Shown here: positions 5,540-35,253 of the stretch, piece by piece | Layout of the letters: every line of letters begins with the position of its first letter | Position numbering within the stretch: the stretch's first letter is position 1 | Assembly (NCBI GenBank): GCA_007133145.1 | Contig: SLNF01000317.1 | Span: forward strand, 1 to 37,459 | Direction of reading: 5' to 3' | Length of the DNA stretch: 37,459 nucleotides | From: Nitriliruptorales bacterium | GTDB lineage: Bacteria; Actinomycetota; Nitriliruptoria; Euzebyales; Egibacteraceae | Translations under genes and position numbers: made by a program | Notes under the pieces: model-generated | Databases searched by the model: none | What the model was told of the DNA's origin: nothing | What the model saw: only the letters and a program-made list of their open reading frames with translations

Positions 5540-5590
5540 CGCCACTGGAACGGGGGCCGCGTTGACGGCGGCCTCCTATCCTTGCCGGTG

Positions 5591-7995: not shown

Positions 7996-8052
7996 GGACC
8001 CGCGCGTTCGCCGTTCGCCCCTGGCAGGTTGGGCCGTTAGGCTCTTGCCCTC

Positions 8053-9860: not shown

Positions 9861-9864
9861 GTGG

Positions 9865-11674: not shown

Positions 11675-11711
11675 ACGTCTTGCTGTGTGCCGACCCAGGA
11701 GAGGAACACCT

Positions 11712-14348
<2,637 letters not shown>

Positions 14349-14408
14349 CGACCCTGTCCCGACGGGCACGGGAGCGCGGCTCCCCGCCACCGGGACCTTG
14401 ACCCACCG

Positions 14409-14455
14409 GCCCCCGGGTCGGCCGAGCGGACACCTGCCGCGGCCGACCCGGGGGC
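14409..14455 (+). terminator. Strong stem-loop downstream of ppdK, a probable intrinsic terminator without a clear U-tract
   Basis: The perfect 15-bp arms cccccgggtcggccg (14410-14424) and cggccgacccggggg (14440-14454) extend to 16 bp with g14409/c14455. The loop is 15 nt. It lies about 60 nt after the ppdK stop. Confidence 0.55.
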
Positions 14456-14491
14456 TACCTTGTGGGCTCCCGTTGCTGAGGAGCGAACCCG

Positions 14492-15106: not shown

Positions 15107-15109
15107 CCT

Positions 15110-16072
<963 letters not shown>

Positions 16073-16185
16073 GGTGGCGCCGCCTCAGCCTCAACGGGGA
16101 TCGCATCGCGCAACGAGTGTAGTGCGACTCATGGTTTCCGCTGCACCGGGTCGTGCGGCAGCATGGAGAACTCGAGGAGGTGCTC

Positions 16186-20299: not shown

Positions 20300-20379
20300 T
20301 GTCCTGGCCGACGATGTCGGCGGGTCCCTTGTCCTGGCCGGCGCTGTCGGTGGGTCTCGCATCGCGGTGTCGCATCGCG
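20300..20379. repeat. Two adjacent tandem duplications in the tkt 5' region: 30 nt x2, then 13 nt x2
   Basis: The 30-nt units at 20300-20329 and 20330-20359 share 25/30 positions. The 13-nt units gtctcgcatcgcg (20354-20366) and gtgtcgcatcgcg (20367-20379) share 12/13. Confidence 0.85.
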
Positions 20380-20592: not shown

Positions 20593-21405
20593 ATGGCGAT
20601 GGCAGGCGAGACGGGCGAAGGGGAGCGCAGCCCCCAGGAACGCCAGGACGACATCCGCGAGCGCATCCTCGCGCAGGGTTTCGTGCGCGTCAGCGAACTC
20701 GCCGCGGCGCACGCGGTGAGCACGATGACGATCCGGCGGGACCTCGACGTCCTCGAGGAGCAGGGCTGGGTCCGCAAGGTCCGCGGCGGCGCGACCGTCG
20801 AGCCGTCCGCCTTCTACCACGGCGACGTCCGCCACCGCATGCAGACGATGACCCGCGAGAAGCGTGCGGTCGCCGCCCGCGCCGTCGAGCTCGTCGAGCG
20901 CGGCCAGACGGTCATGCTCGACGAGAGCACGACGGGTTTCGGGCTTGCCCAGCTGCTGCCGACCCGCCGCCCGGTGACGGTCATCACGAACTTCCTGCCC
21001 TCGCTGCAATTGCTCAGCCGCCAACCCGGGGTCGACCTCATTGCGCTCGGCGGGTCCTACAAGCCTTCCTACGACGCCTTCCTCGGCCCGGGTACCGCCG
21101 ACTCGGTGGGGTCGATGACCGCCGACCTGCTCTTTGCGTCGACGACGGCGATCACCGATGGCGCCTGCTACCACCGCTCGCAGGAGACGATCCTCGTCAA
21201 GCAGGCGCTCATGCGTGCCGCCGCGCGCAAGATCCTGCTCGTCGACAGCGCGAAGTTCGGGCGCCGGGCGGTGCACCACCTCGCCCCGCTCGAGGCCTTC
21301 GACGTCGTCATCGTCGACCGTGGCCTCGACGAGACGCACCTCGCCGACCTCCGCGGACGCGACGTCGAGGTCGTCCTCGTCGACGTCGACGAGGACGAGG
21401 CCTAG
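20593..21405 (+). CDS. DeoR/GlpR-family transcriptional regulator
   Basis: Lies within ORF 20299..21405, with ATG at 20593. Shows the N-terminal HTH (RERILAQGFVRVSELAAAHAVSTMTIRRDLDVLEEQG) and a DeoR C-terminal sugar-phosphate sensor region. Confidence 0.88.
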   Translation: MAMAGETGEGERSPQERQDDIRERILAQGFVRVSELAAAHAVSTMTIRRDLDVLEEQGWVRKVRGGATVEPSAFYHGDVRHRMQTMTREKRAVAARAVELVERGQTVMLDESTTGFGLAQLLPTRRPVTVITNFLPSLQLLSRQPGVDLIALGGSYKPSYDAFLGPGTADSVGSMTADLLFASTTAITDGACYHRSQETILVKQALMRAAARKILLVDSAKFGRRAVHHLAPLEAFDVVIVDRGLDETHLADLRGRDVEVVLVDVDEDEA

Positions 21406-21504
21406 CCGGCAGCGGGCTCCCGCTCCGCCTCGCAGGCGACCCCTTCCGCGCCGCAGTGCCCGCGTGACTGTGCGTTCAAATGTTCGTGGCGACACGAGAA
21501 ATGT

Positions 21505-21533
21505 TTGATATCGCACAGAGGCTGTGCTAACTT
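21505..21533 (+). promoter_or_regulatory. Candidate sigma-70-type promoter: TTGATA, 17-nt spacer, TAACTT
   Basis: TTGATA lies at 21505-21510 and TAACTT at 21528-21533, in a locally low-GC stretch. The spacer holds a perfect inverted repeat GCACAG-AGG-CTGTGC (21512-21526). This is pattern-based only. Confidence 0.4.
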
Positions 21534-21554
21534 GCCGCTCCTCACGAGCGATGT

Positions 21555-21592
21555 CCCGCCATCACGCGCCAGCGATGCCGCGTGGTGGCGGG
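21555..21592 (+). promoter_or_regulatory. 14-bp leader stem-loop abutting the lysR-type gene RBS
   Basis: The arms cccgccatcacgcg (21555-21568) and cgcgtggtggcggg (21579-21592) form 13 Watson-Crick pairs plus one G-U, with a 10-nt loop. The RBS GGAGAGGG starts at 21595. Confidence 0.4.
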
Positions 21593-21609
21593 CATGGAGA
21601 GGGTCGGCG

Positions 21610-22626
21610 ATGGTCGAGCTCCGGCAGCTGCGCTACTTCGTCGCGGTGGCCGAGGAGTTGCACTTCGGTCGCGCGGCGACCCGCCTGCAGATGACCCAGC
21701 CGCCACTGAGCCGGCAGATCCAGGTTCTCGAGCGCGATCTCGGCGTCGAGCTCTTCGTGCGCGGCCGCTCGGTGGCGCTCACCCCCGCCGGACAGGCGCT
21801 GCTGCCGCGCGCCCGACGCGCCATCGATGCCGCCGAGGGTGCAGTCTCCGCCGCACGCGACGCCGTGGACGGCTTGGCGCGGCGACTGCGGGTCGGGTAC
21901 CCCGCGGGTTGGGTGCCGGCCCCGGTGCGCGAGGCCCTGCGACGCGTCGCCGCGAGGGTGCCCGAGGTCGACATCGACCTCCGTCTCGGGCACGCGCGGG
22001 CGCATGCCGACGCGCTGCGGGCCGGCGACCTCGACGCTGCGTTCCTCCACAGCAACGGTGAGGTCGGCAGCACGCTCGCCTCTCGGATCGTCGCCGTCGA
22101 GACCGTCGTCATCGCCCTTCCGGCACAGGCGCCAGGCCCCGCCGATGCGCGGCGTCCGCTCGCCGGGGTCGACGCGCTGCTCCTGCCCGCGGCCGAGGTC
22201 GACCCCTGGCTGCGTGACGTGCTGCTCGAGGTCGCCGTCGCCGCCGGTGGTGACACGAGCGAGGTCGCCGATGTCCCGTCGATGGAGTCCGCGCTGCCCG
22301 CGGTGGCTGCCGGCCTCGGCTGGGCACTCGTCACGCAGTCGCTCGCCGCGAGCGTCGAGGCGCGCGGAGTGCGCTTCGAACCCCTCGCCTGCCCGCCTCC
22401 GTGCAGGGTGGCCTCCCACGTCGTGTGGTCGGCCGGCGCCGTGAGCGGACCGTTGCGGCACTTCCTCGACGCCTGCGGCGAGGCCGAGCGCCAGCGGGTC
22501 ACCGCTGAGCGGGCGCTCTCGGCGGTGTCCGCTCCGTCTGCCGGGGAGGTGGGCTCTCGAGGCCGCCGCGCAGGCCGGGAGCCCGCACCGGCGACGCTGC
22601 CGGCCACCGCGGGCGGGAGGCGGTGA
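21610..22626 (+). CDS. LysR-family transcriptional regulator
   Basis: Lies within ORF 21505..22626, with ATG at 21610. Shows the classic N-terminal LRQLRYFVAVAEELHFGRAATRLQMTQPPLSRQIQVLE. Confidence 0.88.
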   Translation: MVELRQLRYFVAVAEELHFGRAATRLQMTQPPLSRQIQVLERDLGVELFVRGRSVALTPAGQALLPRARRAIDAAEGAVSAARDAVDGLARRLRVGYPAGWVPAPVREALRRVAARVPEVDIDLRLGHARAHADALRAGDLDAAFLHSNGEVGSTLASRIVAVETVVIALPAQAPGPADARRPLAGVDALLLPAAEVDPWLRDVLLEVAVAAGGDTSEVADVPSMESALPAVAAGLGWALVTQSLAASVEARGVRFEPLACPPPCRVASHVVWSAGAVSGPLRHFLDACGEAERQRVTAERALSAVSAPSAGEVGSRGRRAGREPAPATLPATAGGRR

Positions 22627-23519
22627 CGGCGATGCGCAGCGAGGACCCCACCGACCGCGCAGCCCACCTTCGCGAGCCCGACCGTCTGTATCCGGCGTAC
22701 GTGTTCGATCTCGATGGGACGATCTATCTGGGTGAGGGGCTGCTGCCGGGTGCTGAACGGCTGATCACCGAGCTGCGCCGGCGGGGCATCCCGGTGCGGT
22801 TCCTGTCGAACAACCCGACGAAGGACCCTGAGCAGTACGCCGAGAAGCTCACCCGCCTGGGGTTGCCCACCCCGGTGGGCGACATCGTGAACACCGTGGT
22901 GACGATGACCCGCTGGCTGCTCGAGCACGCCCCCGGCCAGGTCGTGTTCCCCCTCGGCGACCCGCCGCTCATCCGGGCGTTCGAGCGGGCGGGCATCCCG
23001 ATGTCGGAGGATCCCGCCGAGATCGACCTCGTCGTCGCGAGCTACGACCACGGCTTCGACTACCGCAAGCTGCAGATCGCCTTCGACGCGTTGTGGTTCC
23101 ACCGGCGGGCGCGGCTCATCGCCACCCACCCGGACCGGTTCTGCCCCTTCCCGGGCGGGCGGGGTGAGCCCGACGTCGCGGCGGTGGTCGCGGCCATCGA
23201 GGCGTGCACCGGGGTGCGCTGTGAGCAGCACGTCGGCAAGCCCGACCCGGCGATGCTGTCGTTGGCCTTGGCCGACCTCGACGTCGACCCTGCTGAGGCG
23301 GTGATGACCGGGGACCGGCTGGCCACCGACGTGCGGTTGGCCCGCAACGCCGGTGCCGCCGGCGCGCTCGTGCTCACCGGCGACTCCGACCTCGACGACC
23401 TCGCCGCCACCGCGCCTGAGCACGCCCCCCACTACGTCCTCGACCGCATCGACCAGCTCATGCCGCGGCGTCTTCGCGAAGAGCTCGGCTGGGACGACGA
23501 CGCCCCCTCCCCGACCTGA
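22623..23519 (+). CDS. HAD-superfamily hydrolase, subfamily IIA (NagD-like sugar phosphatase)
   Basis: ORF 22623..23519. Shows motif I FDLDGTIY, SNNPT, and GKPDP with GDRLATD. The GTG start overlaps the LysR stop (GTGA); an alternative ATG lies at 22632. Confidence 0.82.
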   Translation: MTAMRSEDPTDRAAHLREPDRLYPAYVFDLDGTIYLGEGLLPGAERLITELRRRGIPVRFLSNNPTKDPEQYAEKLTRLGLPTPVGDIVNTVVTMTRWLLEHAPGQVVFPLGDPPLIRAFERAGIPMSEDPAEIDLVVASYDHGFDYRKLQIAFDALWFHRRARLIATHPDRFCPFPGGRGEPDVAAVVAAIEACTGVRCEQHVGKPDPAMLSLALADLDVDPAEAVMTGDRLATDVRLARNAGAAGALVLTGDSDLDDLAATAPEHAPHYVLDRIDQLMPRRLREELGWDDDAPSPT

Positions 23520-23583
23520 CCGCCCGCGCGGCGCCCGCGCGCCTGCGCACCCCGCCGACGACGCACCGACAAAGGAGCCGACG

Positions 23584-25146
23584 ATGACCGAGGCAAGCAA
23601 GACCGGACCGTTCCTCATGGGGATCGACATGGGCACGGAGAGCTGCCGCGTGGGGGTGTTCGACACCGCCGGGCGGCCGCTGGCCTTCGAGGCCACGCCG
23701 TACCAGACCTCCTACCCGCGGCCAGGGTGGGCCGAGCAGGACCCCGACGACTGGTGGGCGAGTCTCGTCGCCTCGGTCAAGGGCGCGCGCGAGCGCGCGG
23801 GGGTGAGCCCCGAGGACATCGCCGGCATCTCCTACGACGCGACGACGCTCACCCTCGTGGCGACCGACCGTCGCGGCCAGCACCTGCGGCCGGCGATCAT
23901 GTGGATGGACGTGCGCGCCTCCGACCAGGCCGAGCGCATCGGCCGCTCCGAGCACCCCGTGCGAGCGGTCAACGGCGGCGGCCCGGTCTCCGCGGAGTGG
24001 TACCCGAGCAAGTCGCTGTGGCTCAAGGAGCAGGAGCCCGAGACCTACGAGCGCGCCGAGCGCCTCGTCGACTGCGCCGACTGGATCACCCACAAGCTCA
24101 CCGGGCGCTGGACCTTCAACGTCAACACCGCGGCGGTGCGCTCCTACTACAACCGCGACCTCGGCGGCTGGCCCACGGACTTCTACGAGGAGATCGGCCT
24201 CGGCGACATCTTCGACAAAGTCCCCGAGGAGGTCTGCGACCTCGGCACGCCGCTCGGGGGGCTCTCGACCGAGGCGGCCGCCGAGCTCGGGCTGCGCAAG
24301 GGCACGCCGGTGGCGCAGGGTCCCGGGGACGCCTGGGCCGCGCAGATCGGCCTCAACGTCGTCAAGCCCGGCAAGATGGCGCTCATCACCGGCTCCTCCC
24401 ACGTCCTCATCGGCCAGCACGACGAGTCCGTCTCCGGCCTCGGCTTCTTCGGCGCCTACCCCGAGGCGGTCATGCCGGGGCAGTACACCGTCGAGGGCGG
24501 GCAGGTCTCTTCGGGGTCGGTGCTCAAGTGGTTCAAGGACCAGTTCATGACCGAGGCCATCGCCGAGGCCGAGACCGCCGGTGTCAACCCCTACCACCTC
24601 CTCAACAAGCGGTCCGCGGAGATCCCCCTCGGCTCGGAGGGCCTCATCGTCAACGAGTACTGGCAGGGCAACCGCACCCCCTACACCGACCCGCTCGCCC
24701 GCGGGATGATGTGGGGCTTCAGCCTCCGCCACACCCCCTTCCACATCTACCGGGCCATCCAGGAGGGCGTGTGCTACGGCACCGCGCACATCCTGCGGGC
24801 GATGGCAGCCGCCGGCACCGACGTCCACGAGTTCGTCGCCGCCGGCGGTGCGACGAACAGCCGCTTCTGGACGCAGATGCACGCTGACGTCACCGGGGTG
24901 CCGGTCACCCTCACCGAGGTCGGCGACGCCGCGGTCCTGGGCTGCGCGATCCTCGCGGCCGCCGGCTCCGGCGTCCACGGTGGGGTCGCCGAGGCCGCCG
25001 AGGCGATGGTCCACGACACCGAGACCCTCCAGCCCGACCCCGAGGCGCACGAGGCCTACCAGTTCTACGTCGACAAGTACGTCGACGCCTATCCGCAGAT
25101 GCGCGGGCTCATCCACGACGTCGTCAAGCGCGTCGGCGAGGCGTAG
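23584..25146 (+). CDS. FGGY-family carbohydrate kinase (pentulose/tetrulose-kinase-like, about 520 aa)
   Basis: Lies within ORF 23353..25146. ATG at 23584 has AAGGAG at 23572-23577. Shows GIDMGTESCRVGVFD, PGWAEQDPDDWW, and FGGY C-domain motifs (GGATNSRFWTQMHADVTG). Confidence 0.88.
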   Translation: MTEASKTGPFLMGIDMGTESCRVGVFDTAGRPLAFEATPYQTSYPRPGWAEQDPDDWWASLVASVKGARERAGVSPEDIAGISYDATTLTLVATDRRGQHLRPAIMWMDVRASDQAERIGRSEHPVRAVNGGGPVSAEWYPSKSLWLKEQEPETYERAERLVDCADWITHKLTGRWTFNVNTAAVRSYYNRDLGGWPTDFYEEIGLGDIFDKVPEEVCDLGTPLGGLSTEAAAELGLRKGTPVAQGPGDAWAAQIGLNVVKPGKMALITGSSHVLIGQHDESVSGLGFFGAYPEAVMPGQYTVEGGQVSSGSVLKWFKDQFMTEAIAEAETAGVNPYHLLNKRSAEIPLGSEGLIVNEYWQGNRTPYTDPLARGMMWGFSLRHTPFHIYRAIQEGVCYGTAHILRAMAAAGTDVHEFVAAGGATNSRFWTQMHADVTGVPVTLTEVGDAAVLGCAILAAAGSGVHGGVAEAAEAMVHDTETLQPDPEAHEAYQFYVDKYVDAYPQMRGLIHDVVKRVGEA

Positions 25147-25168
25147 GAACGACGGAGAGGAGCAGCCG

Positions 25169-25636
25169 ATGACCACGATCGGGATCGGCGCCGACGATGC
25201 TGGCGCCCCGCTGAAGGAGCACCTCGCGGCCTACCTGCGCGAGCTCGGCTACGAGGTCGTCGACTACGGCAACGCCGAAGGGGACGACGAGGACTACCCC
25301 GACGTCGCCGAGCAGGTCGCCGAAGGGGTGGCCTCCGGCGCCCACGAGCGGGCGTTGCTCGTCTGCGGCACCGGCCTGGGCATGGCGATCACCGCCAACA
25401 AGGTGCCCGGTGTGCGGGCGGCCACGGCCCATGACGCCTACTCCGCCGAGCGTGCCCGCAAGTCCAACGACGCGCAGGTGCTGACGATGGGCGCCCGCGT
25501 CATCGCGCCGCAGGCCGCCGAGGTCGTGCTGCAGCACTGGCTCGACTCGGAGTTCGCCGGCGGCGGCTCGGCCCCGAAGGTGGCGAAGATGAACGCCGTC
25601 GAGGCCCGCCAGCGCGGGACCGCCGGCAACGACTGA
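25169..25636 (+). CDS. RpiB/LacA/LacB-family sugar-phosphate isomerase
   Basis: Lies within ORF 24848..25636. ATG at 25169 has GGAGAGGAG upstream. Shows IGADDAG...LLVCGTGLGMAITANKVPGVRAA...NDAQVLTMGARV. Confidence 0.88.
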   Translation: MTTIGIGADDAGAPLKEHLAAYLRELGYEVVDYGNAEGDDEDYPDVAEQVAEGVASGAHERALLVCGTGLGMAITANKVPGVRAATAHDAYSAERARKSNDAQVLTMGARVIAPQAAEVVLQHWLDSEFAGGGSAPKVAKMNAVEARQRGTAGND

Positions 25637-25641
25637 GCCCA

Positions 25642-25681
25642 CGGGTGGTCGGCCGCGGGGACCCCGGTGGCCGACCACCCG
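25642..25681 (+). terminator. Stem-loop immediately after the RpiB-family gene
   Basis: The arms cgggtggtcggcc (25642-25654) and ggccgaccacccg (25669-25681) form 13 perfect base pairs. The loop contains a further GGGG-a-CCCC pairing. Confidence 0.55.
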
Positions 25682-25869
25682 GGCATCGTCGGTCCGGCCG
25701 ATGGCCGCGGCCGAGCACCACGCGAGGCGTCGCCACCGCCCGGGGAGGCCCACGAGGCCTGCCCACTTCCGCCGCCACCGCGAGATCGACGAGCAACTGA
25801 AGCCGCCGATGCACCGGGTCGCCGCGCACCTGCGCGACGGCGAGGGCGAGGCGCGAGGAGGGGTGACCG

Positions 25870-27213
25870 ATGACGAGTGAACGGATCGAGCGGGCTCTTG
25901 CGCACGCGACGCACACGACGGCGGTGCGCTTCGAGTCGGGGGCGCTCGCGGCGGTCGGTGAGACCTTCGCCGCGAGCTTCCCCGGCGCCGGGGCGCAGAT
26001 CGTCGCCGACGGCAACACCGAGGCCGCGGCCGGCCAGGCGGTGAGGGCGAGTCTGCGTGAGGCTGGCGTCGGCCTCGAGGAGGGGCTCGTCTTCCCTGCT
26101 CGCCCGACGCTCTACGCCGGCTATGAGCGCGTGCCGGAGATCGTCGAGGTACTCGAGGGCAGCGAGGCGGTTCCCGTCGCCGTCGGCAGCGGCACGCTCA
26201 ACGACCTCGTCAAGCGTGCGGCCTTCGAGCTCGAGCGACCGTACATGGTCGTGGCGACCGCTGCGTCGATGGACGGCTACGCCGCCTACGGGGCGTCGCT
26301 GGCCAAGGACGGGCACAAGCAGACGCTGTCGTGTCCGGCGCCCCGGGCGGTCGTCGCCGACCTCGACGTGCTCGCCGCCGCGCCGGCGGCGATGACCGCC
26401 TCGGGCTACGGTGACCTCCTCGGCAAGGTCACCGCCGGGGCGGACTGGCTGTTCGCCGACGCCCTCGGCGTCGAGCCGATCGACGACTTGTCCTGGGGGT
26501 TGGTGCAGGAGCCGTTGCGCGCCTCGATCGGCCGGCCCGCGGCTTTGGCCCACGGTGACCTCGGGGCCATGGAGTCGCTCGTCGAGGGGCTCGTGATGTC
26601 GGGGGTGGCGATGCAGGCCTACGCCTCCTCGCGCCCCGCCTCGGGTTCGGAGCACCAGTTCAGCCACCTCTGGGAGATGGAGGGTCTCGGCCGCGACCTC
26701 GACCCTCCCCTGTCCCACGGCTACAAGGTCGGCCTCGGCTCGATCGCCATCGCCGCGCTCTACGAGCGGCTGCTCGAGCGTGACCTGTCGGCCCTCGACA
26801 TCGACGCCTGCCGCCACGCCTGGCCGAGCTTCCCCGATCTCGAGACGCGAGCCCACGCAGCCCACCCGCTGCTCGGCGACGTCGCCGTCGCGCAACTCGC
26901 CGGCAAGTACGTCGACGCCGACGGGCTCGCCGACCGCCTCGAGCGGCTCACCGTGGCCTGGCCCGCCCTGCGCGAGCGGCTCGCCGGCCAGTTGCTGCCG
27001 GCGACCGAGTTGCGCGACATGCTCGCTGCGGCCGGCTGCCCCACCACCCCCGAGGAGGTCGGCCTGACCCGTGAGGAGCTCAAGGCCACCTACGCGCGCT
27101 CGCAGATGATCCGCTCGCGCTACACCGTCCTCGACGTTGCCGTCGAGACCGGCCTGCTCGAGCCCTGCGTCGAGGAGCTCTTCGCCCCCGGCGGCTACTG
27201 GGCGCAACACTAG
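25870..27213 (+). CDS. sn-Glycerol-1-phosphate dehydrogenase-like protein (Fe-ADH_2 / AraM-EgsA family)
   Basis: ORF 25870..27213 with GAGGAGGGG upstream. Shows VAVGSGTLNDLVKRAA, AAPAAMTASGYGDLLGK and GSEHQFSHLWE, which match the family's nucleotide and metal-site patterns. Confidence 0.82.
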   Translation: MTSERIERALAHATHTTAVRFESGALAAVGETFAASFPGAGAQIVADGNTEAAAGQAVRASLREAGVGLEEGLVFPARPTLYAGYERVPEIVEVLEGSEAVPVAVGSGTLNDLVKRAAFELERPYMVVATAASMDGYAAYGASLAKDGHKQTLSCPAPRAVVADLDVLAAAPAAMTASGYGDLLGKVTAGADWLFADALGVEPIDDLSWGLVQEPLRASIGRPAALAHGDLGAMESLVEGLVMSGVAMQAYASSRPASGSEHQFSHLWEMEGLGRDLDPPLSHGYKVGLGSIAIAALYERLLERDLSALDIDACRHAWPSFPDLETRAHAAHPLLGDVAVAQLAGKYVDADGLADRLERLTVAWPALRERLAGQLLPATELRDMLAAAGCPTTPEEVGLTREELKATYARSQMIRSRYTVLDVAVETGLLEPCVEELFAPGGYWAQH

Positions 27214-27284
27214 TGCGGAAGGGGGCCGACCGGCCGGCCTGAGTGCGACTCGGCGTGCTCAGGTCAAGACCGCGACTCCGCAGC

Positions 27285-27608
27285 CTCGGCTGCGGCCGTG
27301 AGGAGCTCGACGGCGCGGTCACGGTCCTCTCGTACATGTCGTTGGTCGACCGCTGCGTCGAGGCGGCCGAGCAGGAGGGCGTCAAGCGCACCAACCGCGT
27401 GCACGTCGTCGAGCAGGGCTCGGCGGGCACGTGCTACGGCGGGTGGCTCGGCGACGAGATCAGCGGGCGCCTCTTCGACTGGCCCGACGCCCCCGTCGGC
27501 CGGGTCCACGGCAGCGAGTCCTCGCCGAGCATCTCCAAGAGGCTCGAGGCCTCGTCGCTCGCCGACGTCGACGAGATCGTCGCGGGTCTGCGCGAGGTCC
27601 AGTACTGA
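27285..27608 (+). pseudogene. Remnant of a 2-oxoacid (pyruvate/acetoin/BCKA) dehydrogenase E1 beta subunit; C-terminal domain only, with an internal deletion
   Basis: ORF 27243..27608 reads ...DGAVTVLSYMSLVDRCVEAAEQEGV/KRTNRVHVVEQGS...FDWPDAPVGRVHGSESSPSISKRLEASSLADVDEIVAGLREV. This matches only the last ~100 residues of E1 beta, and the ...EVIDLR..PLD... segment appears to be missing. No E1 alpha gene is present. Confidence 0.6.
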
Positions 27609-27643
27609 GTCGGGGACCGCCCGAGAACGACGCCAGGAGACTG

Positions 27644-28251
27644 ATGATGGCGAGCATCCTGCGCCTGCCGGGCGTGTGCGCCGACGCCGACGACGCGGTC
27701 ATCGAGGAGTGGGTCGTCGAGTCCGGCGCCAGCGTCAAGGCCGACGACATCCTCGCGATGGTCGAGACCGACAAGGCCGTCGTGGAGATCCCCCACAGCT
27801 CGCTGCGCAAGGCCATCGCGAGGCGCCTGCAGGCCAGCGTGCGCGAGGCCCCGCACTCCTTCATGCGGGCGACCATCGACACAGGCGCGCTCGCGGCCGT
27901 CCGGGCGGAGCTCCACGAGGGCGCCGCGCAGGTTCGCGAGCTCGCGGGCCGCGCCCAGGAGGGCAGGCTGCGTCAGCACGAGCTCGAGGGGGGACGTTCA
28001 CGGTGAGCAACCTCGCCATGTTCGGCGTCGAGGGGTTCAGCGCGATCATCAACCCCCCGCATGCCGGGATCCTCGCGGTCGGCGCGACGCGGCAGGGGCC
28101 GGTCGTCGACGCCGATGGGGCGCTCGCGGTGGGCACCGTCCTCTCGCTGACCCTCTCGGCCGACCACCGGCCCATCGACGGGGTCGTGGCCGCCCGGTGG
28201 CTCACGCGCCTGCGCCACCTCCTTGAGCATCCCCTACAGATCCTTACGTGA
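27644..28251 (+). pseudogene. Remnant of a dihydrolipoamide acyltransferase (E2): partial lipoyl domain joined to catalytic-domain fragments, plus a frameshift
   Basis: The RBS AGGAGA and ATG 27644/27647 are followed by the lipoyl motif VETDKAVVEIP. This runs directly into the catalytic-domain start HSSLRKAIARRL...PHSF. The frame switches inside a G6 run (27988-27993), joining ...RLRQHELEGG to TFTVSNLAMFG...INPPHAGILAVG...SADHRPIDG (ORF 27298..28251). Confidence 0.65.
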
Positions 28252-28393
28252 TCGTGCATGACCGTACCCATGCGGTAGGATCACCGACAGGATGGGACAA
28301 ACCGTTACATCCACATGAAGGGTGAATGGCTCGGGCGGACAGAGGTCGACCACGACGCAACGACGACGGCTCTGCTCAAGGGATGTGGGGTCC

Positions 28394-29128
28394 ATGGCAA
28401 CGCAGCTTGACCGCGACGCGGCGACACCGCTGTACGTGCAACTGACCGACATCCTTCGCGACGAGATCGAGCGTGGGCTCTGGGTGCCCGACCGCAAGAT
28501 CCCCTCCGAGAACGAGTTGCACCGCACCTACGGCATCAGCCGCATGACCGCCCGGCAGGTCATCGGCCAGCTCGTCAACGAGGGCCTGCTCTACCGTGTG
28601 CAGGGCAAGGGCACCTTCGTCGCCCCGAACAAGATCTCCACACGCTCGCCGGCCTACGCGGGCATCCGGGAGCAACTCGAGGAGCTCGGCTACACGACGA
28701 AGACGACGCTGCTGAGCCTCGAGCAGGTCGCGGCCGACCGGGCCGTGGCGAAGAAGCTACGCCTCGATGACCACGCGCCGGTCTTTGCGATCCGTCGCCT
28801 GCGCTCGGCCGATGGCGTCCCGCTGAGCCTCCATGAGTCCTACGTTCCCGTGGCGCTCGCACCGGACCTCGACGAGCACGACGTCACCAACGAGCAGCTC
28901 TGCGTCGTCCTCGCGGAGCACTACGGCCTCACGATGGGGCACGTCAGGGAGACCCTCGAGATCCTCACGGCCCCGCCCGGCACCGCCGAGCAGCTCGAGG
29001 TGCGCGCCGGTGCCCCCCTGCTCATGCTGCAGCACTCGATCGCCACGCCCGAGGGCCGGATCTTCGAGTACGCGCGGATTGCCGTCCGGGGCGACAAGGT
29101 CCGCCTTCACATGGAGTACGACCTCTAG
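28394..29128 (+). CDS. GntR-family transcriptional regulator, HutC subfamily (UTRA effector domain)
   Basis: Lies within ORF 28322..29128, with ATG at 28394. Shows PLYVQLTDILRDEIERG...KIPSENELHRTYGISRMTARQVIGQLVNEGLLYRVQGKGTFV, followed by a UTRA-like C-terminus. Confidence 0.88.
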   Translation: MATQLDRDAATPLYVQLTDILRDEIERGLWVPDRKIPSENELHRTYGISRMTARQVIGQLVNEGLLYRVQGKGTFVAPNKISTRSPAYAGIREQLEELGYTTKTTLLSLEQVAADRAVAKKLRLDDHAPVFAIRRLRSADGVPLSLHESYVPVALAPDLDEHDVTNEQLCVVLAEHYGLTMGHVRETLEILTAPPGTAEQLEVRAGAPLLMLQHSIATPEGRIFEYARIAVRGDKVRLHMEYDL

Positions 29129-29153
29129 ACCCCCGTCGACTTCCGGTGGCGGC

Positions 29154-29924
29154 TCACGCCGCGAGCAGCCGCCGCAGCGAGGCGAGGTCGTGGAACCCCT
29201 CGGTGTTGCGCACGTCGGTCCCGGCGATCACCGTCGCAGGCTGACCCGGGTCGCCGAGGCTGTCGACGACGGTGGCGGCGCTGGGGAAGGCCTCGTCCTT
29301 CGTGAAGTCGTTCACCGTTACGAGGTGGGTCAGGCCTGCGCGCTCGGCCGCGGTGGCGCCGGGCCGTGAGTCCTCGATGACGACCGTGCGGGAGCGGTCG
29401 AGTCCCACCTCGGCGAGCGCGAGCTCGTAGATGTCGGGGTGGGGCTTCTTGCGCTCGACGATGTCGCCGGCGAACACCCCGCCCATGCGCTCGACCGCGT
29501 CGTCGCCGACGACGCTGCGCACGACGGCCTCGACGCTGCGCGGCGAGGACGTCGATGCCACCGCGACCCGCCAGCCCTCGTCGAGCGCGGCGTGGACGAG
29601 GCGACGCACGCCAGGCCGGCCCGGCATGGCGCCGGCGTCGACGAGCTCGACGTAGACCTCGCTCTTGCGGCGGTGCAGCGCGAGGACGTGCTCCTCGAGC
29701 GCCTCACCGCTGCCGAGTCCGAGCTCGGGGTGCTGTGCGAAGTAGGTCCGGAGGCGCTCCTTGCCGCCGGGGACGTCGAGCAGCTCCCGGTACTCCTCGA
29801 CCGACCAGGTGAGGTCGTAACCGAGGTCGGCGAAGGCCCGGTTGAAGGCGACGAGGTGCCCGTCACGCTCGGTGTCGGCGATGGTGCCGTCGCAGTCGAG
29901 TAGGAGCCCGTAGCGGTCACTCAC
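29154..29924 (-). CDS. HAD-superfamily hydrolase, subfamily IA (CbbY/beta-phosphoglucomutase-like phosphatase)
   Basis: C-terminal part of ORF 29154..30515. GTG at 29924 overlaps the aldolase stop (GTGA). Shows LLLDCDGTIADTE, VASTSS, KKPHPDIY and EDSRPG. Confidence 0.82.
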   Translation of the reverse strand: MSDRYGLLLDCDGTIADTERDGHLVAFNRAFADLGYDLTWSVEEYRELLDVPGGKERLRTYFAQHPELGLGSGEALEEHVLALHRRKSEVYVELVDAGAMPGRPGVRRLVHAALDEGWRVAVASTSSPRSVEAVVRSVVGDDAVERMGGVFAGDIVERKKPHPDIYELALAEVGLDRSRTVVIEDSRPGATAAERAGLTHLVTVNDFTKDEAFPSAATVVDSLGDPGQPATVIAGTDVRNTEGFHDLASLRRLLAA

Positions 29925-30805
29925 GCTCCGGCCCTCCCCGCCGCCCGCACGGCCTTGCCCTCGCAACCGAAGAGCACGAGGTGCTCGGCGATGGCCTCGC
30001 GGACCCCGTCGAAGACCGCATCGAGGAGCTTGATCGGCTCGTGCTTGCCGGTGCGCTCGGCCTCCTCGAGGTAGGCGGCGGCCGAGGAGGTGTAGGCGAG
30101 CTTGAGCGCGGTCGAGACGTTGATCTTCGCCACGCCCGCCTCGATGAAGGTCGCGAAGTCCTCGGCGGTGAGTCCCGTGCCGCCGTGGAGCACGAGCGGC
30201 AGATCGGTGAGGGCGCGGAGCTCGCGCGCACGGTCGAAGCGCAGCCTCGGTGCGGTCTTGTACATGCCGTGGGCGGTGCCGAGGGCGGGCGCGAGGAGGT
30301 CGGCACCGGACGCGTGGGCGAAGTGCACGAGGCGCTCGACGTCGTAGGGCTCCATCTCCTCGTCCGAGCCGACGTCGTCCTCGACCCCCGTGATGTTCTC
30401 GATCTCGCACTCCACCGAGGCGCCGAGGGCGTGCGCCTCCCCGACGACCTCGGTGGTCTCGCGCAGCGCGTCGTCGTAGCCGCGGTCGGAGGCGTCGAAG
30501 AGCACCGAGGACCATCCGGCCTCGAGGGTCTCGGTGATGACGGAACGGTCGGGGCAGTGGTCGAGGTGCAGGGTCACCGGGACGCTCGCAGCCTCCGCGA
30601 CGGTGCGGACCGTGCTCTCGAGGAGGGCCGAGCCCATGCTGCGCACGGTCTTCACCGACGTCTGGAGGATCACCGGTGCGCTGACCCGCTCGGCGGCGGC
30701 GACCACCGCGCGCACCGAGACGTCGTCGACGACGTTGACCGCGGCCACGGCGTAGCCGTCGTCCCGGGCGGTCCTCACCACCTCGAGTGTCGTGGCCAGT
30801 GGCAT
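29921..30805 (-). CDS. Class II ketose-bisphosphate aldolase family protein (FbaA/KbaY/GatY-like)
   Basis: C-terminal part of ORF 29921..31513. ATG at 30805 has GGAGAGGAGAGG upstream. Shows ILQTS, HLDH and LVLHGGTG. Confidence 0.88.
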   Translation of the reverse strand: MPLATTLEVVRTARDDGYAVAAVNVVDDVSVRAVVAAAERVSAPVILQTSVKTVRSMGSALLESTVRTVAEAASVPVTLHLDHCPDRSVITETLEAGWSSVLFDASDRGYDDALRETTEVVGEAHALGASVECEIENITGVEDDVGSDEEMEPYDVERLVHFAHASGADLLAPALGTAHGMYKTAPRLRFDRARELRALTDLPLVLHGGTGLTAEDFATFIEAGVAKINVSTALKLAYTSSAAAYLEEAERTGKHEPIKLLDAVFDGVREAIAEHLVLFGCEGKAVRAAGRAGA

Positions 30806-30854
30806 CTGCCTCTCCTCTCCCGGCACGCCGCGGCGTGCGTCCTGCTCGGTCGTG

Positions 30855-31665
30855 TCAGTCCGCCGCGTCACGTGCGCCGGCCCGTGCGCGCTGCACCTCG
30901 GCGGCGGTGGCGAGGAACGTCTCCGGATCGAGGCCCGCGCGCCCGAGGAAGATACCCTGCGGCACCGGCAGCGATGCCGCCACGGCGGCGTCGGCGATGT
31001 CGGAGAAGGTGCCGGGGCGGGCGCTGCCGCCGTAGAGCACGCGCGTCCGCCGCACATGGCGGGTCGCGAGCTCGCGGATGCTCGCCACGGCCTCGACGAC
31101 ATGGCCGCTGGGCGCCGGGTCGGTCTGCCCGATCGCCCACGTCGGCTCGTAGGCGATGACGAGCTCACCGTGGTCGGGCAAGCGCGCGAGGCCGACCTCG
31201 AGTTGCTGGGACCACAACCTCTCGGCACGGGGGCCCGGCTCAGGCTCACCGACGATGAGGATCGGCACGAGGCCCGCGGCGGCGGCCCGCGCGATCTTGT
31301 CGGGCACCGCCGCCGACTCCTTGGGGGCTGCGCCGGACGCGCTCGGGGTGCCCGACCATGACGTAGCGCACCCCGAGCTCGGCGAGGAGCTCGGCGGAGA
31401 CCTCCCCGGTGAAGGCCCCGGGTGGGCTCGCCGAGACGTCCTGCGCCCCGAGGGCGACCCCGGTCGCGACGAGCTCGGCGCCGAGCACCGGGATGAGGGG
31501 AAACGCCGGGCACACGTAGAGGCCCTCGTCGTCGACCTCCCCGGCCTCGGCCGCTCCCGCCACCCGCTGGCCCCAGCGACGGGCGACCGTGAGGTCGAAG
31601 GAGCTCTTGGAGCTACGGCCCACGAGCGTCTGCGGCAGCACGTCCCGCTTCACCCTTCCGCTCAT
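30855..31665 (-). pseudogene. Triosephosphate-isomerase-family gene (TpiA2/EryH/LerI-like) interrupted by one frameshift
   Basis: The N-terminal part is at the end of ORF 31246..32169 ([22 protein letters not shown]...[27 protein letters not shown]). The C-terminal part is ORF 30855..31307 (...LVIAYEPTWAIGQ...VLYGGS...). The frames meet at the G5 run 31323-31327. The total span is 811 nt (3n+1), so removing one base restores ...[22 protein letters not shown]... Confidence 0.7.
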
Positions 31666-31704
31666 CGATTCCCTGCGTCGCCAACATACCCTGTGATGTA
31701 CGTT

Positions 31705-31714
31705 CCTGTACAGG
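31705..31714. promoter_or_regulatory. Perfect 10-bp palindrome CCTGTACAGG, a candidate operator in a divergent promoter region
   Basis: Read directly. It lies in a locally AT-richer stretch (aacataccctgtgatgtacgttcctgtacagg), with a second TGTAC 12 nt upstream, between the TIM-like start (31665) and the GlpD-like start (31816). Confidence 0.3.
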
Positions 31715-31815
31715 CAGTGGAGGACCGCGGGCGTCGCGCTCAGCGCCGCCGGGCTGGTGGCGCGGCGCCGTCGGGTTGCGCCCGTCCACCTCGAGGCGAA
31801 GGAGCGGTGGTTCGG

Positions 31816-31976
31816 ATGACGGGCATCAGCCGGGCACGACCGGCCTACCTCGCAGCCGGACGGCCCCTCGACGTCGCCATCGTCGGGGGCGGGATCAACG
31901 GCGTGGTGATCGCCCGCCACGCGGCGATGCGCGGCTCTTCCTCGGGCTGTTCGAGAGGCACGACTTCTCCTCGTCG
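31816..31976 (+). pseudogene. 5' fragment of an FAD-dependent glycerol-3-phosphate dehydrogenase-like (GlpD/EryB-like) gene
   Basis: AAGGAG at 31799-31804 and ATG at 31816 precede [40 protein letters not shown] (Rossmann GGGxxG). After a frameshift near 31930 it continues as [13 protein letters not shown]. Similarity ends near 31976. Confidence 0.6.
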
Positions 31977-31984
31977 CTCTGCTG

Positions 31985-32277
31985 CGAGGCCCAGACGATC
32001 GCGTGTGGATGGGCTGCCCGGTGTCCTTCCCCAACACGACCGCGGTCTCGCGCTGGTTGGTGGGACCGAGGGAGGCGAGATCGTCGGCCCGGATCGTTGC
32101 CCGGCGCATCGATCCCGGAGGGTCTCGCGCTGGACGCGCACGATCTCCTCGGGGTCGTGCTCGATCCACGCGGGGTGGGGATCGTGCCGTAGGAGCCCGG
32201 CTGCAGCGACGCCGAGGGGCTCACCGTCCTCATTGACGACGAAGGTCCGCGCTCCCGTCGGTACCCGCGACTGACAT
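31985..32277 (-). pseudogene. 5' fragment of a second FGGY kinase (glycerol-kinase-like) with several frameshifts
   Basis: My manual minus-strand translation starts at ATG 32277 and finds these pieces in three frames: MSVAGT / [49 protein letters not shown] / [36 protein letters not shown] / AIVW. NQRET..VW......G.PI..AIVW is the GlpK N-domain signature. Similarity ends near 31990. Confidence 0.6.
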
Positions 32278-32416
32278 CGGCACGGTTCGCCGCCACTCGA
32301 GGTGGACGGCCTGGGCGGGCCCTGAGGTGCCCCCCGGATGCCAGCAGGACCGTCGTGGCACGGTCATGGCCAGGCGACGGGGCAATCGGGGTGCACGGTG
32401 GGCCGAGACCGTTGCC

Positions 32417-33699
32417 ATGATGGAGGTTCGAGGCCTCGTGAGCGACTCGTCGATCACCCGCGCGTCGCGCGCTCGCCGATGGCGCGGGCCTACCCGGGGC
32501 TGCCGCTCGAGCACCTCCACGTCGGCGCCGGGGCCCTCGAGGTGCTCCCCCGAGCTCGTCGCCGGCCTCGACGTCGCGGGCACCGCCGCGTTCGTCCACG
32601 CGGCCAGCCCCGAACGCGACCTCGACCGCCTCGTCGCCGAGGCCAGGGAGCTCCTCGGATCCGACCTCGAGCTGCGCGAGATCTCCCCGCGCAGCGGCCC
32701 CCACGGGGTCGTGCTCGACGAGGCCACCGTCGAGGAGGCGGTCGAGGCTGCCGCCGGGGTCGCCCTCGTCGTCGCCGTCGGCAGCGGCACGGTCTGCGCG
32801 ACCTCGCGAAGGCCGTCGCCGCGCGAGCGGAGGCCCCGCTCGTCGCCGTGCAGTCCGCCGCGTCGGTCAACGGCTACGCCAACGGCCTGTCGGTGCTCAT
32901 GCGCCGGGGTATCAAGCGCACGACGTCGACGGTCTCACCCTTTGCCCTGCTCATCGACCCCGACGTCCTCGCCGCGGCGCCGGAGCGGCTGACACAGGCC
33001 GACGTCGCCGAGCTCGAGGCTGCGGCGGCCGACCGCGGGATGGACCCGCTCATCAACGCGCTCACCGTCGGCGGGCTCGCGATCGCCGCGGCGCACTCGA
33101 CCGCGCCGCTGTCGGGCTCGGAGCACCTCATGAGCCACGTCGTCGACATGGTCGCCGCGCACCGCCACGACGCCCACGACTTCCACGGCGCGCAGGTCGG
33201 GGCCGGCGCGGTGGTCTTCGCCGCGCTGTGGCGCCACCTCCTCGCCGATCCCGCGCACGTCCACCGGCCCGACGGTCCGCCGCGCCCGACGCCCTCCGAT
33301 CTCGAGGAGCGCAGTCGACGGGCCTGGGAGGCGGTCGACCCCGGCGGAGGCCTGGGGCGGGACTGCTGGGCGGTGGCCGGCGGCAAGTGGCAGTCGCTGC
33401 TCGCCGACTCCACCGCCGTCGACGCGCTGCTCGCGACCTGGGGGGAGCATCTCGTCGCGCTCGACGGGGTGATCGACGCCGTCGACCGGCCGCTCGCCAC
33501 ACTCGAGGCCTGGGGGGCGCCGACGGCCTTCGCCGATCTCGATCCCGCACGCGACGACGACGCCGTGCGCTGGGTCCTGCGGGCCCTGCCGTTCGTCCGC
33601 GACCGCTTCACCGTCGTCGACCTCCTCGTCCTCACGGGACGATGGGACGACGAGCTCATCGACCACCTCGTCGCCGCGTCCCACGCCTCGACGCGATAA
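32417..33699 (+). pseudogene. Second G1PDH-like (Fe-ADH_2) gene, disrupted by at least two frameshifts and an apparent internal deletion
   Basis: The pieces lie in ORFs 32338..33699 and 32327..32992. ...HLHVGAGALEVLP joins ELVAGLDV... at a C5 run (32547-32551, one extra C). ...VAVGSGTVC joins DLAKAVA... with one base missing near 32798-32799. GSEHLMSHVVD is retained, but the SGxGD...K segment seen in the intact copy is absent. The start is uncertain (ATG 32417 or 32479). Confidence 0.65.
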
Positions 33700-33703
33700 C
33701 CGC

Positions 33704-34315
33704 TCAGGCGCGGCCGGTCGCGCCGGTCCCGCCCCAGCGCTCACGGTGGACGGCGTCACGGCGTGGTCTGCGCTGCGACGACCCGACGGGTCGCTCGTCG
33801 GCGTGGCGGGTCCCGAGGGTGACGACCCCCAGCGGCACGACCTCCTCGGGGATGCCGAGATGGGTGCGCAGGCCGGCGCGGTCGGCGATGTCGACGAACC
33901 CGGCATCGAGGCCCTCGTCGACCGCGGCGAGCAGGAGGAGCATGAGCATCGCGCCGCCGTCGACCCACCAGAACGGGACGTCCCAGGCACGCGGGAGCCG
34001 TGAGCCGGTCTTGTCGGGCTCGGCGTAGCGCGCGTGGTAGGCCGCCTCGGCGACGCAGGGCACGAGGTGGACCGGGGCGGAGGACAGCCAGGCGGGCCGC
34101 CCTGCGGCGAGGTGCGTGGGCTCGTCGCAGCAGCGCGCGATCGCCTCGCGGCCCCCGTCCGTGGTCACGCAGACGATCGACTGCCCCTGGCTGAAGCCGG
34201 CGCTCGGCGCGCGCGAGGCGGCGTCGAGCACCCGGGCGAGCGCGTCCTCGGGCACCGGTGTGCCGTCGTAGCGGCGCACCATGCGCCGACGCCGGACGAC
34301 CTCAGCGAACTCCAT
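33704..34315 (-). CDS. Nitroreductase-family protein
   Basis: ORF 33704..34315. Shows the N-terminal VVRRRRMVRRYDGTPVPEDALARVLDAASRAPSAGFSQG, typical of the family. Confidence 0.85.
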   Translation of the reverse strand: MEFAEVVRRRRMVRRYDGTPVPEDALARVLDAASRAPSAGFSQGQSIVCVTTDGGREAIARCCDEPTHLAAGRPAWLSSAPVHLVPCVAEAAYHARYAEPDKTGSRLPRAWDVPFWWVDGGAMLMLLLLAAVDEGLDAGFVDIADRAGLRTHLGIPEEVVPLGVVTLGTRHADERPVGSSQRRPRRDAVHRERWGGTGATGRA

Positions 34316-34336
34316 GGTCGTCCCGGGGCGACGGGC

Positions 34337-35242: not shown

Positions 35243-35253
35243 CCCTCTTCGGC

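Follow-up and report, generated by a model that had tools for sequence, protein, structure and literature searches.

A 37,459-nucleotide stretch of the Nitriliruptorales bacterium assembly GCA_007133145.1 (contig SLNF01000317.1, positions 1 to 37,459; hereafter the window) carries at 20593-27213 a conserved gene module, which codes for a DeoR-family regulator, a HAD-IIA phosphatase, an FGGY kinase, an RpiB-family isomerase and an AraM-like dehydrogenase, and is divergent from the tkt-tal pair encoding transketolase and transaldolase. We tentatively propose, granting the idea somewhat less than an even chance, that the module is a "phosphorylate first, oxidize second" catabolic set, which would act on a small polyol under DeoR control and deliver it into the pentose-phosphate pathway. 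Its favored substrate would most likely be a tetritol such as erythritol, with a pentitol such as ribitol as the main alternative. An earlier reading of the same DNA (the original prediction) had treated everything from 20593 to 33699 as one 13-kb tetritol-type island; synteny with two related loci, L091 and L092, instead resolves that region into the ancestral module and the insertions of a LysR gene and of the segment 27214-33699.

The conserved module and its spread

The G+C content of the window is 73%, as a consequence of which spurious frames are abundant in raw lists of open reading frames (ORFs). Genes were mapped by a frame plot of third-position GC (GC3), and each was then checked with Pfam and NCBIfam; all the gene families listed in the original prediction were recovered in this way. 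In L091 and L092, with protein identities of 67-83%, the order is tal-tkt / DeoR-HADIIA-FGGY-RpiB-dehydrogenase / nitroreductase-(SNF)-CHAD-ParC; in L092 (1-4951) tkt is followed by HAD-IIA, RpiB and the dehydrogenase, the DeoR and FGGY kinase genes having been lost. In the window, transketolase (18248-20281, reverse strand; NCBIfam TIGR00232, 806 against a cut-off of 682) is divergent from the DeoR gene, and transaldolase (17060-18187, reverse strand; Pfam TAL_FSA, 262 bits; NCBIfam tal_mycobact, 338 > 233.75) has a syntenic counterpart in L091 with 75% identity.

The dehydrogenase defines a family of about 450 amino acids with more than 5000 homologs, found at no fewer than 593 loci in species-representative genomes and ranging over Rubrobacteraceae, Solirubrobacterales, Egibacteraceae, Propionibacteriaceae (Cutibacterium, Acidipropionibacterium, Propionibacterium and Luteococcus), Actinomycetaceae, Chloroflexota and others. 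Reference proteins were mapped onto 85 loci and the neighboring ORFs were clustered de novo, and partner shares were taken from those 36 related loci that extend 8 kb or more in both directions. Within 8 kb of the dehydrogenase, one particular FGGY subfamily is found in 64% of these complete loci, HAD-IIA in 58%, RpiB in 50%, a GpsA-like dehydrogenase in 36%, DeoR in 25%, transketolase in 17%, a zinc-dependent alcohol dehydrogenase (Zn-ADH) in 14% and a Dak-type kinase in 11%. Chance falls far short of explaining such clustering of the core genes. A dozen or more loci from different classes have transketolase within or beside the module, in some cases together with transaldolase and phosphoglucose isomerase (tkt adjoins it in L007, L008, L009, L012, L044, L070-L074, L083, L086 and L091), and in L012 tal, tkt, RpiB, FGGY and HADIIA all stand on one strand. 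The original prediction is supported in that the five genes behave as a functional unit tied to tkt-tal, a linkage that recurs in distant lineages. DeoR homologs adjoin the module in Propionibacteriaceae, and pairs of Zn-ADH and a 570-amino-acid Dak kinase adjoin it in several relatives. In several gene-rich versions, among them Rubrobacter indicoceani (L003) and an Egibacteraceae locus (L004), the kinase is present as two to three paralogs and the dehydrogenase as up to two, arranged as adjacent kinase-dehydrogenase pairs. Propionibacteriaceae and several Solirubrobacterales have as their standard form the minimum, a single kinase with the phosphatase, RpiB and the dehydrogenase.

The closest named homolog of the dehydrogenase (76% identity) lies in L001 (FTMS01000013.1, 2293-11350), which is labelled Alkalispirochaeta americana; alongside two FGGY kinases and a split transketolase, its cluster encodes SorC, HAD-IIA and RpiB; it has transposase genes on its flanks and looks like a horizontal transfer from a soda-lake actinobacterium or a contamination.

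The dehydrogenase of the window (25870-27213, forward strand, 447 amino acids; Pfam Fe-ADH_2 PF13685, 112.9 > 28) was termed "G1PDH-like" in the original prediction, after sn-glycerol-1-phosphate dehydrogenase (G1PDH). Its predicted structure (mean predicted local distance difference test, pLDDT, 92.9) finds as top Foldseek match Bacillus subtilis AraM, a Ni-dependent glycerol-1-phosphate dehydrogenase (9h4x, TM 0.74/0.83), with which it shares 38% identity over 260 amino acids and the motifs GSGTLND, GDLLGK, SEHQFSH and SHGYK. It scores below the G1PDH equivalog NF002022 (164 < 413), the match spanning residues 24-299 only, and is about 55 amino acids longer than G1PDH by virtue of a family-specific extension. 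Residues D182, H262, H266 and H283 are invariant across the family, and all invariant family residues are kept. The fold is accordingly of the Fe-ADH_2 type and includes the GSG motif for NAD binding as well as conserved Asp/His/His residues as the probable metal ligands. This match in fold and motifs to AraM and G1PDH, enzymes that act on a polyol phosphate, favors our proposal.

The FGGY kinase (23584-25146, forward strand; Pfam FGGY_N and FGGY_C) falls below every curated NCBIfam equivalog, including ribulokinase (288 < 428, and 236 < 583 for a second model), XylB xylulokinase (272 < 380), pentulose kinase (260 < 409) and glycerol kinase (165 < 590). By these cut-offs it is neither the ribulokinase nor the xylulokinase that the original prediction had named as the contrary case, its best relative in a sequence search of solved structures being the ribulokinase 3qdk (222 bits). 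In Propionibacteriaceae, Solirubrobacterales and L091 the corresponding place is taken by orthologs with 60-72% identity, and the kinase represents a distinct subfamily. A further piece of an FGGY kinase, overlooked in the original prediction, lies on the forward strand directly upstream of the dehydrogenase: at about 25764-25838, in a region with a coding-type GC3 signal (25650-25840), tblastn finds 60% identity to residues 491-515 of the L001 kinase that precedes the dehydrogenase there, and the translation FRRHREIDEQLKPPMHRVAAHLRDGEGE fits the C-terminus of that kinase. Since this C-terminal stub, of which roughly 30 residues are left, survives just upstream of the dehydrogenase, the window is likely to have once held a kinase-dehydrogenase pair.

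The isomerase (25169-25636, forward strand; Pfam LacAB_rpiB, 167.5 bits) has the Cys-type active-site motif CGTG and passes only the generic RpiB subfamily (NCBIfam NF004051, 172 > 135), remaining below the D-erythrulose-4-phosphate isomerase model DerI (NF051858, 161 < 240), below RPI_actino (142 < 168) and below the galactose-6-phosphate isomerase models LacA (88.7 < 164) and LacB (92.3 < 234). A strong hairpin at 25642-25681, beginning 6 nucleotides past its stop codon, has 19-nucleotide arms (89% complementary) and a 2-nucleotide loop; transcription of HAD-IIA/FGGY/RpiB may terminate here, in which case the dehydrogenase would be transcribed separately. The HAD-IIA phosphatase (22623-23519, forward strand; AraL/NagD/PGP-like, Pfam Hydrolase_6 and Hydrolase_like) passes TIGR01460 (109.5 > 100.15), is 64% identical to its Egibacteraceae ortholog and appears to be a generic NagD/PGP-type enzyme.

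The regulator (20593-21405, forward strand; Pfam HTH_DeoR and DeoRC) is 77% identical to its syntenic counterpart in L091 and reaches no NCBIfam equivalog cut-off. Tandem direct repeats at 20300-20378, in the divergent intergenic region between tkt and deoR (27 nucleotides twice, 89% identity; 13 nucleotides twice, 92%), may be operator sites. A search of the intergenic regions for a shared DeoR operator yielded only local tandem repeats and the hairpin after RpiB and no common motif; nothing matching the repeats at 20300-20378 precedes the other module genes.

Proposed reactions and kinship with known routes

We posit that the FGGY kinase would phosphorylate a terminal hydroxyl of the polyol, turning erythritol into D-erythritol-4-phosphate (that is, L-erythritol-1-phosphate), and that the AraM-like dehydrogenase, as a metal- and NAD(P)-dependent enzyme, would oxidize the polyol phosphate to a ketose phosphate. 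RpiB would then produce the aldose phosphate, either erythrose-4-phosphate or ribose-5-phosphate, which the adjacent transketolase and transaldolase would carry into central metabolism. Stereochemistry bears on the second step: sn-glycerol-3-phosphate is D-glycerol-1-phosphate and sn-glycerol-1-phosphate is L-glycerol-1-phosphate, and because the latter is the stereochemical analogue of L-erythritol-1-phosphate, a G1PDH homolog is expected to take L-erythritol-1-phosphate. Should the product be L-erythrulose-1-phosphate, an isomerase of the LerI/EryH type would be required ahead of RpiB, and EryC would not; a gene of this type adjoins the module in Propionibacterium freudenreichii, and the window holds no intact one. 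For the HAD-IIA phosphatase we can only guess at a safety valve or proofreading function against a toxic phosphate ester or one of the wrong isomer.

It is possible, although we regard it as doubtful, that the FGGY kinase, AraM-like dehydrogenase and RpiB, together with HAD-IIA, make up a third bacterial pathway, hitherto undescribed, for the use of erythritol and perhaps of other tetritols or ribitol, which would run by phosphorylation to D-erythritol-4-phosphate (the orphan EC 2.7.1.27-type activity), NAD(P)-dependent oxidation through a relative of the archaeal-type glycerol-1-phosphate dehydrogenase and isomerization to erythrose-4-phosphate. Literature searches returned no functional description of the module and nothing joining G1PDH with FGGY, RpiB or erythritol, and a paper of November 2025 recognizes only two bacterial tetritol routes (PMC12780249).

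The erythritol pathway of Brucella and other Rhizobiales employs the EryA kinase, the GlpD-like dehydrogenase EryB, the EryC epimerase, EryH/TpiA2, EryI/RpiB and the DeoR-type repressor EryD (PMC10733421, PMC12542623). With it the module would share both its logic (phosphorylation of the polyol, oxidation of the polyol phosphate, isomerization to erythrose-4-phosphate and entry into the pentose-phosphate pathway) and three kinds of part: a regulator of DeoR type, an isomerase of the RpiB family and a kinase of the FGGY family, to which Pfam assigns the window protein. The Brucella intermediate, D-erythritol-1-phosphate, is handled by EryB. However, EryB is a GlpD-like flavoenzyme, whereas the module dehydrogenase is predicted to be a soluble NAD(P)- and metal-dependent member of the G1PDH family and, by analogy, would take the opposite enantiomer. 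HAD-IIA is a constant extra member of the module; no EryC (D-erythrulose-1-phosphate 3-epimerase) candidate is found among the Pfam-scanned genes of the window, as had been noted before; EryB is represented by a 26-residue GlpD-like stub only, Pfam detecting no DAO-family gene in the window; an intact EryH-type gene is lacking there; and the RpiB misses the DerI equivalog.

The tetritol routes of Mycobacterium (Mycolicibacterium) smegmatis use the dehydrogenases EltD and DthD, the kinases LerK and DerK, and the isomerases LerI and DerI, and end with the same product and an RpiB-type last step. Pairs of Zn-ADH and Dak-type kinase resembling DthD and DerK adjoin the module in some relatives, as does a LerI-like gene in P. 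freudenreichii. Yet the mycobacterial routes oxidize first and phosphorylate second, most likely the reverse of the order here, and hold no counterpart of the G1PDH-like or HAD-IIA proteins; nor does the window have a Zn-ADH or short-chain dehydrogenase/reductase (SDR) polyol dehydrogenase beside the module, a Dak gene or an ABC transporter. The original prediction thus holds in that the unit conforms to neither described tetritol route; its tally of three regulators and two phosphatases, in contrast, is an artefact of lumping separate units.

If the module would work most like the Brucella route, it looks most like araB-L-M. In the B. subtilis array araB-araD-araL-araM, FGGY, HAD-IIA and Fe-ADH_2 proteins likewise stand in one sugar operon, and AraM is the closest characterized relative of our dehydrogenase; the roles of AraL and AraM in that operon are themselves without explanation (PMC5059525). 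Unlike in B. subtilis, RpiB and transketolase are linked to the module, the window kinase is not a ribulokinase by cut-off, the dehydrogenase has its extra 55 or so residues, and no araA, araD or Aldolase_II gene is found in the window.

All 21 strains of P. freudenreichii tested ferment erythritol and adonitol, and the authors found genes for neither; the same work describes the module locus, present in all strains, as a non-essential second arabinose locus "araB, araM, araL" (PMC4437456). We find the dehydrogenase on more than 200 P. freudenreichii contigs. In L086 (CP120878) a Dak kinase and a TIM-family paralog (2357-3109) adjoin the module; the paralog scores 216.7 bits against the solved L-erythrulose-1-phosphate isomerase 11ef, and the highest-scoring true TIM reaches 157. 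A membrane protein with multiple passes and a length of about 360 amino acids (precomputed Pfam DUF7973) stands between RpiB and HAD-IIA in versions from Propionibacteriaceae and Actinomycetaceae (L086, 6371-7450; L074, 6187-7266; L087, 6483-7445; L090, 4846-5976, where it adjoins an unrelated FGGY kinase) and is a candidate polyol transporter.

An older biochemical precedent also comes from the propionibacteria. Wawszkiewicz and Barker reportedly described in 1968 an erythritol pathway of Propionibacterium pentosaceum consisting of a kinase, L-erythrulose-1-phosphate and an aldolase, to which no genes are known to have been assigned; PMC4437456 and PMC10733421 cite this work. Phosphorylation before oxidation would be common to both, and L-erythrulose-1-phosphate is the product expected of a G1PDH-type oxidation of L-erythritol-1-phosphate; in contrast to aldol cleavage, however, the RpiB and transketolase partners of the module suggest isomerization to erythrose-4-phosphate. 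A strong tie to this pathway was considered and downgraded, since those close homologs of the dehydrogenase that carry a species name do not include Acidipropionibacterium acidipropionici, as the organism used in 1968 is now called; the link is therefore weak, and we do not claim to explain that pathway.

The inserted patchwork and the flanking genes

Since L091 and L092 lack homologs of the intervening genes between the conserved neighbors, we regard both the LysR gene and 27214-33699 as lineage-specific insertions, the latter a later and mostly decayed one in which only the GntR gene and a pair coding for an aldolase and a CbbY-like phosphatase look intact. The LysR, GntR, HAD-IA, aldolase and TIM-like genes and the debris described below all lack a homolog in these two syntenic loci, and the original prediction's inclusion in the set of the aldolase, HAD-IA, GntR, TIM-like gene, stubs and second Fe-ADH_2 gene fails in that they are absent from nearly all of the 87 related loci as well and that several of them are pseudogenes. 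The LysR gene (21610-22626, forward strand; Pfam HTH_1 and LysR_substrate) has a stop codon overlapping the HAD-IIA start by 4 nucleotides, and a homolog (42%) adjoins the module only in L008.

The insertion begins with debris of a 2-oxoacid dehydrogenase E1-beta/E2 system at 27243-28251 (forward strand), which the original prediction did not mention; Pfam and the frame plot detect, distributed over three frames, a Transketolase_C domain (the E1-beta C-terminus), a truncated Biotin_lipoyl and positions 5-53 and 150-231 of the 2-oxoacid_dh profile. It is followed by a GntR/HutC-type regulator (28394-29128, forward strand; Pfam GntR and UTRA) and by three reverse-strand genes. The HAD-IA phosphatase (29154-29924; Pfam Hydrolase and HAD_2; a 256-amino-acid gene call in the near-identical assembly L088) has the N-terminal motif DCDGTIADTERDGH, by which we take it to be CbbY-like. 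The class II ketose-bisphosphate aldolase (29921-30805; Pfam F_bP_aldolase, 259.8 bits) is intact and falls below all NCBIfam equivalogs (GatY, 206 < 383; KbaY, 143 < 542), reaching 214.9 against 215.6 for the cbbA subfamily; its best solved relative is KbaY 8q57 (171 bits). It is seldom near the module, with weak matches in L007 and L059 only. A conserved trio of aldolase, TIM and HAD-IA was considered and ruled out, as the aldolase-HAD-IA pair recurs alone as a two-gene unit in L089 and L090 and lacks the TIM gene there.

The TIM-family gene (30855-31668) is, as had been predicted, frameshifted: the Pfam TIM profile matches in two frames (positions 22-94 and 107-241), because a C5 run near 31345 has shifted the frame by 1 nucleotide. 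When the two parts are stitched, the protein reaches 120 bits against Thermus thermophilus TIM versus 86.5 bits to the L-erythrulose-1-phosphate isomerase 11ef (LerI). With the LerI-like paralog of L086 it shares a Ser in place of the Asn before the catalytic Lys, absence of the loop-6 GTG and a loop-8 Gly-Arg, with the Escherichia coli enzyme as reference. The GlpD-like N-terminal stub (31858-31935, forward strand, 26 residues) and the GlpK-like FGGY N-terminal stub (32145-32258, reverse strand, 38 residues), both in the original prediction, are present by tblastn; over these scraps (31858-32258) the frame plot shows no distinct coding signal. The "second G1PDH-like gene" (about 32400-33699, forward strand; Pfam Fe-ADH_2, 51.5 bits over a partial stretch; a 283-amino-acid call in L088), on the other hand, has about 28% identity to the module dehydrogenase family and a change of frame near 32750; it is therefore a divergent pseudogene and not a paralogous copy belonging to the set.

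L088 (contig SKJS01000127.1, GCA_007121875.1) spans window positions 24332-37446 with 99.53% identity over 13.1 kb, 61 substitutions and a single indel at 32329. As the frameshifted TIM gene, the E2 debris in its three frames and the damaged second copy of Fe-ADH_2 type all recur in this independent assembly, the lesions are real and sequencing errors are ruled out. The kinase, RpiB and dehydrogenase together differ from their L088 counterparts by four synonymous and no nonsynonymous changes (two synonymous each in the kinase and the dehydrogenase), and the E2 debris by 5.8 differences per kb.

Beyond the insertion lie, all on the reverse strand, genes for a nitroreductase (33704-34315), a CHAD protein (34337-35242) and a ParC/GyrA-like protein (35254-37434). 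Against L088 the last shows 28 differences, or 12.8 per kb, of which 19 are nonsynonymous; this density is several-fold that found elsewhere in the aligned 13 kb and could stem from recombination or from selection that is either relaxed or diversifying. On the other side, the tkt-tal pair adjoins a UbiA-family gene (15110-16072), which passes the heme O synthase equivalog (421 > 246). This neighborhood is the usual actinobacterial housekeeping arrangement. Positions 1-17052 further include genes for an acyltransferase, a FabG-like SDR, a FabD-like acyltransferase, an ABC-2 exporter pair, a GAF-HisKA_3 kinase with a LuxR-type response regulator, CBS and BON proteins, pyruvate phosphate dikinase, a LiaF-like protein and a patatin-like lipase; none of this upstream context has a link to sugar uptake. 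Rfam, tRNA and promoter/terminator consensus scans found nothing.

Alternative explanations and wider meaning

The tetritol assignment draws indirect support from the Zn-ADH and Dak pairs of several relatives, from the LerI-like paralog of P. freudenreichii and from the position of the kinase below the ribulokinase and xylulokinase cut-offs; to that extent the tetritol-type pathway of the original prediction stands, with a pentitol or pentose route as a live rival. In such an accessory module of ara type the substrate of the kinase would be a pentulose or pentitol, AraM and AraL would have their counterparts in the dehydrogenase and phosphatase, RpiB would be a ribose-5-phosphate isomerase and transketolase would take xylulose-5-phosphate and ribose-5-phosphate, with no tetrose involved. 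We consider this unlikely but a serious rival, because Acidipropionibacterium jensenii encodes directly after the dehydrogenase a bona fide ribulokinase (718 > 428) and the L-ribulose-5-phosphate epimerase AraD (342 > 251), and its RpiB passes the ribose-5-phosphate isomerase equivalog RPI_actino (169.7 > 168.2). P. freudenreichii, too, has a true ribulokinase directly after the dehydrogenase, its locus was published as araBML, and its adonitol (ribitol) use is likewise without assigned genes; the B. subtilis operon unites the same three families, with AraM as the top match in sequence and fold, and the best profile and structure matches of the window kinase are to ribulokinase and xylulokinase. 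Nevertheless, the window kinase misses every pentulose-kinase cut-off, the window has no AraA, AraD or ribulokinase, its RpiB is nearer to the D-erythrulose-4-phosphate isomerase model (161) than to RPI_actino (142), although below both cut-offs, and the Dak and Zn-ADH pairs and LerI-like neighbor point to tetruloses. A tagatose/galactitol route, which the original prediction had kept in view and which would combine a LacAB-type isomerase with a GatY/KbaY-type aldolase, appears very improbable: RpiB and LacAB are one Pfam family and KbaY is the best solved relative of the aldolase, but the LacA and LacB cut-offs are missed by far while the RpiB subfamily is passed, those of GatY and KbaY are missed too, tagatose-6-phosphate kinase (PfkB/LacC), a phosphotransferase system (PTS) and GatD are lacking in the window, and the aldolase belongs to the lineage-specific insertion, being unlinked to the isomerase in relatives.

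Handling of glycerol phosphate is a further, improbable, explanation, whereby a genuine G1PDH and a HAD-IIA glycerol-phosphate phosphatase would convert dihydroxyacetone phosphate to glycerol-1-phosphate and glycerol, or salvage glycerol-1-phosphate from lipoteichoic acid or archaeal lipids, with kinase, RpiB and tkt only loosely linked. Every source does name the dehydrogenase sn-glycerol-1-phosphate dehydrogenase, its closest solved relatives are G1PDHs, the relatives of HAD-IIA include the glycerol-3-phosphate phosphatases 7po7 (86 bits) and 4i9f (64 bits), GpsA-like, GlpD-like and Dak genes are often nearby (GpsA-like in over a third of the complete loci, as given above), and the window has GlpD and GlpK stubs. 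But the G1PDH equivalog is missed widely and the extension is family-specific, the close and recurrent association with RpiB, transketolase and an FGGY subfamily other than GlpK is left unexplained, the paralogous kinase-dehydrogenase pairs speak for a range of related substrates and not for a single triose, and there is no GGGPS/PcrB-type gene in the window. An ether-lipid role, considered on account of a UbiA prenyltransferase 10 kb from the dehydrogenase, was ruled out, the sole UbiA-family gene being heme O synthase. Of similarly low probability is that the locus no longer encodes a working pathway here and is what remains of a larger polyol island being lost: the kinase stub upstream of the dehydrogenase, the pseudogenes and debris across 27.2-33.7 kb, fixed in two assemblies, the want of a transporter and the losses in L092 are in its favor, whereas four core genes are intact with their invariant residues kept and only synonymous differences from L088, and the minimal four-gene set is the standard form elsewhere.

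Several observations weigh against the polyol module that we favor, some of them the same as those just cited. Pfam scans detect no transporter anywhere in the window, and the DUF7973 protein of the propionibacterial versions is missing from it; the module is eroding in this clade, with one kinase lost from the window and the DeoR and kinase genes from L092; and the dehydrogenase stands alone in roughly one third of the complete loci. The LerI-like gene lies beside the module in just one of the 87 loci, that of P. freudenreichii, and the window's own TIM-like gene is a pseudogene nearer to true TIM than to L-erythrulose-1-phosphate isomerase. To these are added the ribulokinase, AraD and equivalog-passing RpiB of A. 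jensenii, the absence of A. acidipropionici from the named homologs and the guesswork on HAD-IIA. No sequence feature fixes the substrate.

The window copy is best viewed as a trimmed and partly eroded example of the module, and illustrates how an ancestral five-gene module together with inserted junk can pass for a single 13-kb island. The dehydrogenase family is large and conserved, and it is probably mis-annotated: more than 5000 proteins of Actinomycetota and Chloroflexota annotated as "sn-glycerol-1-phosphate dehydrogenase" sit in a conserved sugar-phosphate context, apparently without explanation. If our proposal is true, thousands of bacterial G1PDH annotations would need revisiting, with a bearing on the arguments over archaeal-type lipids in bacteria, and AraL/AraM-like genes in bacterial sugar operons would receive a first rationale. 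It would likewise provide new enzymes for erythrulose and erythrose-4-phosphate engineering. Furthermore, a study of 2015 stated that no genes could be found by which dairy propionibacteria use erythritol and adonitol (PMC4437456); the module would supply these missing fermentation genes for P. freudenreichii and its relatives, and it gives a direct experimental handle on an old question in propionibacterial metabolism.

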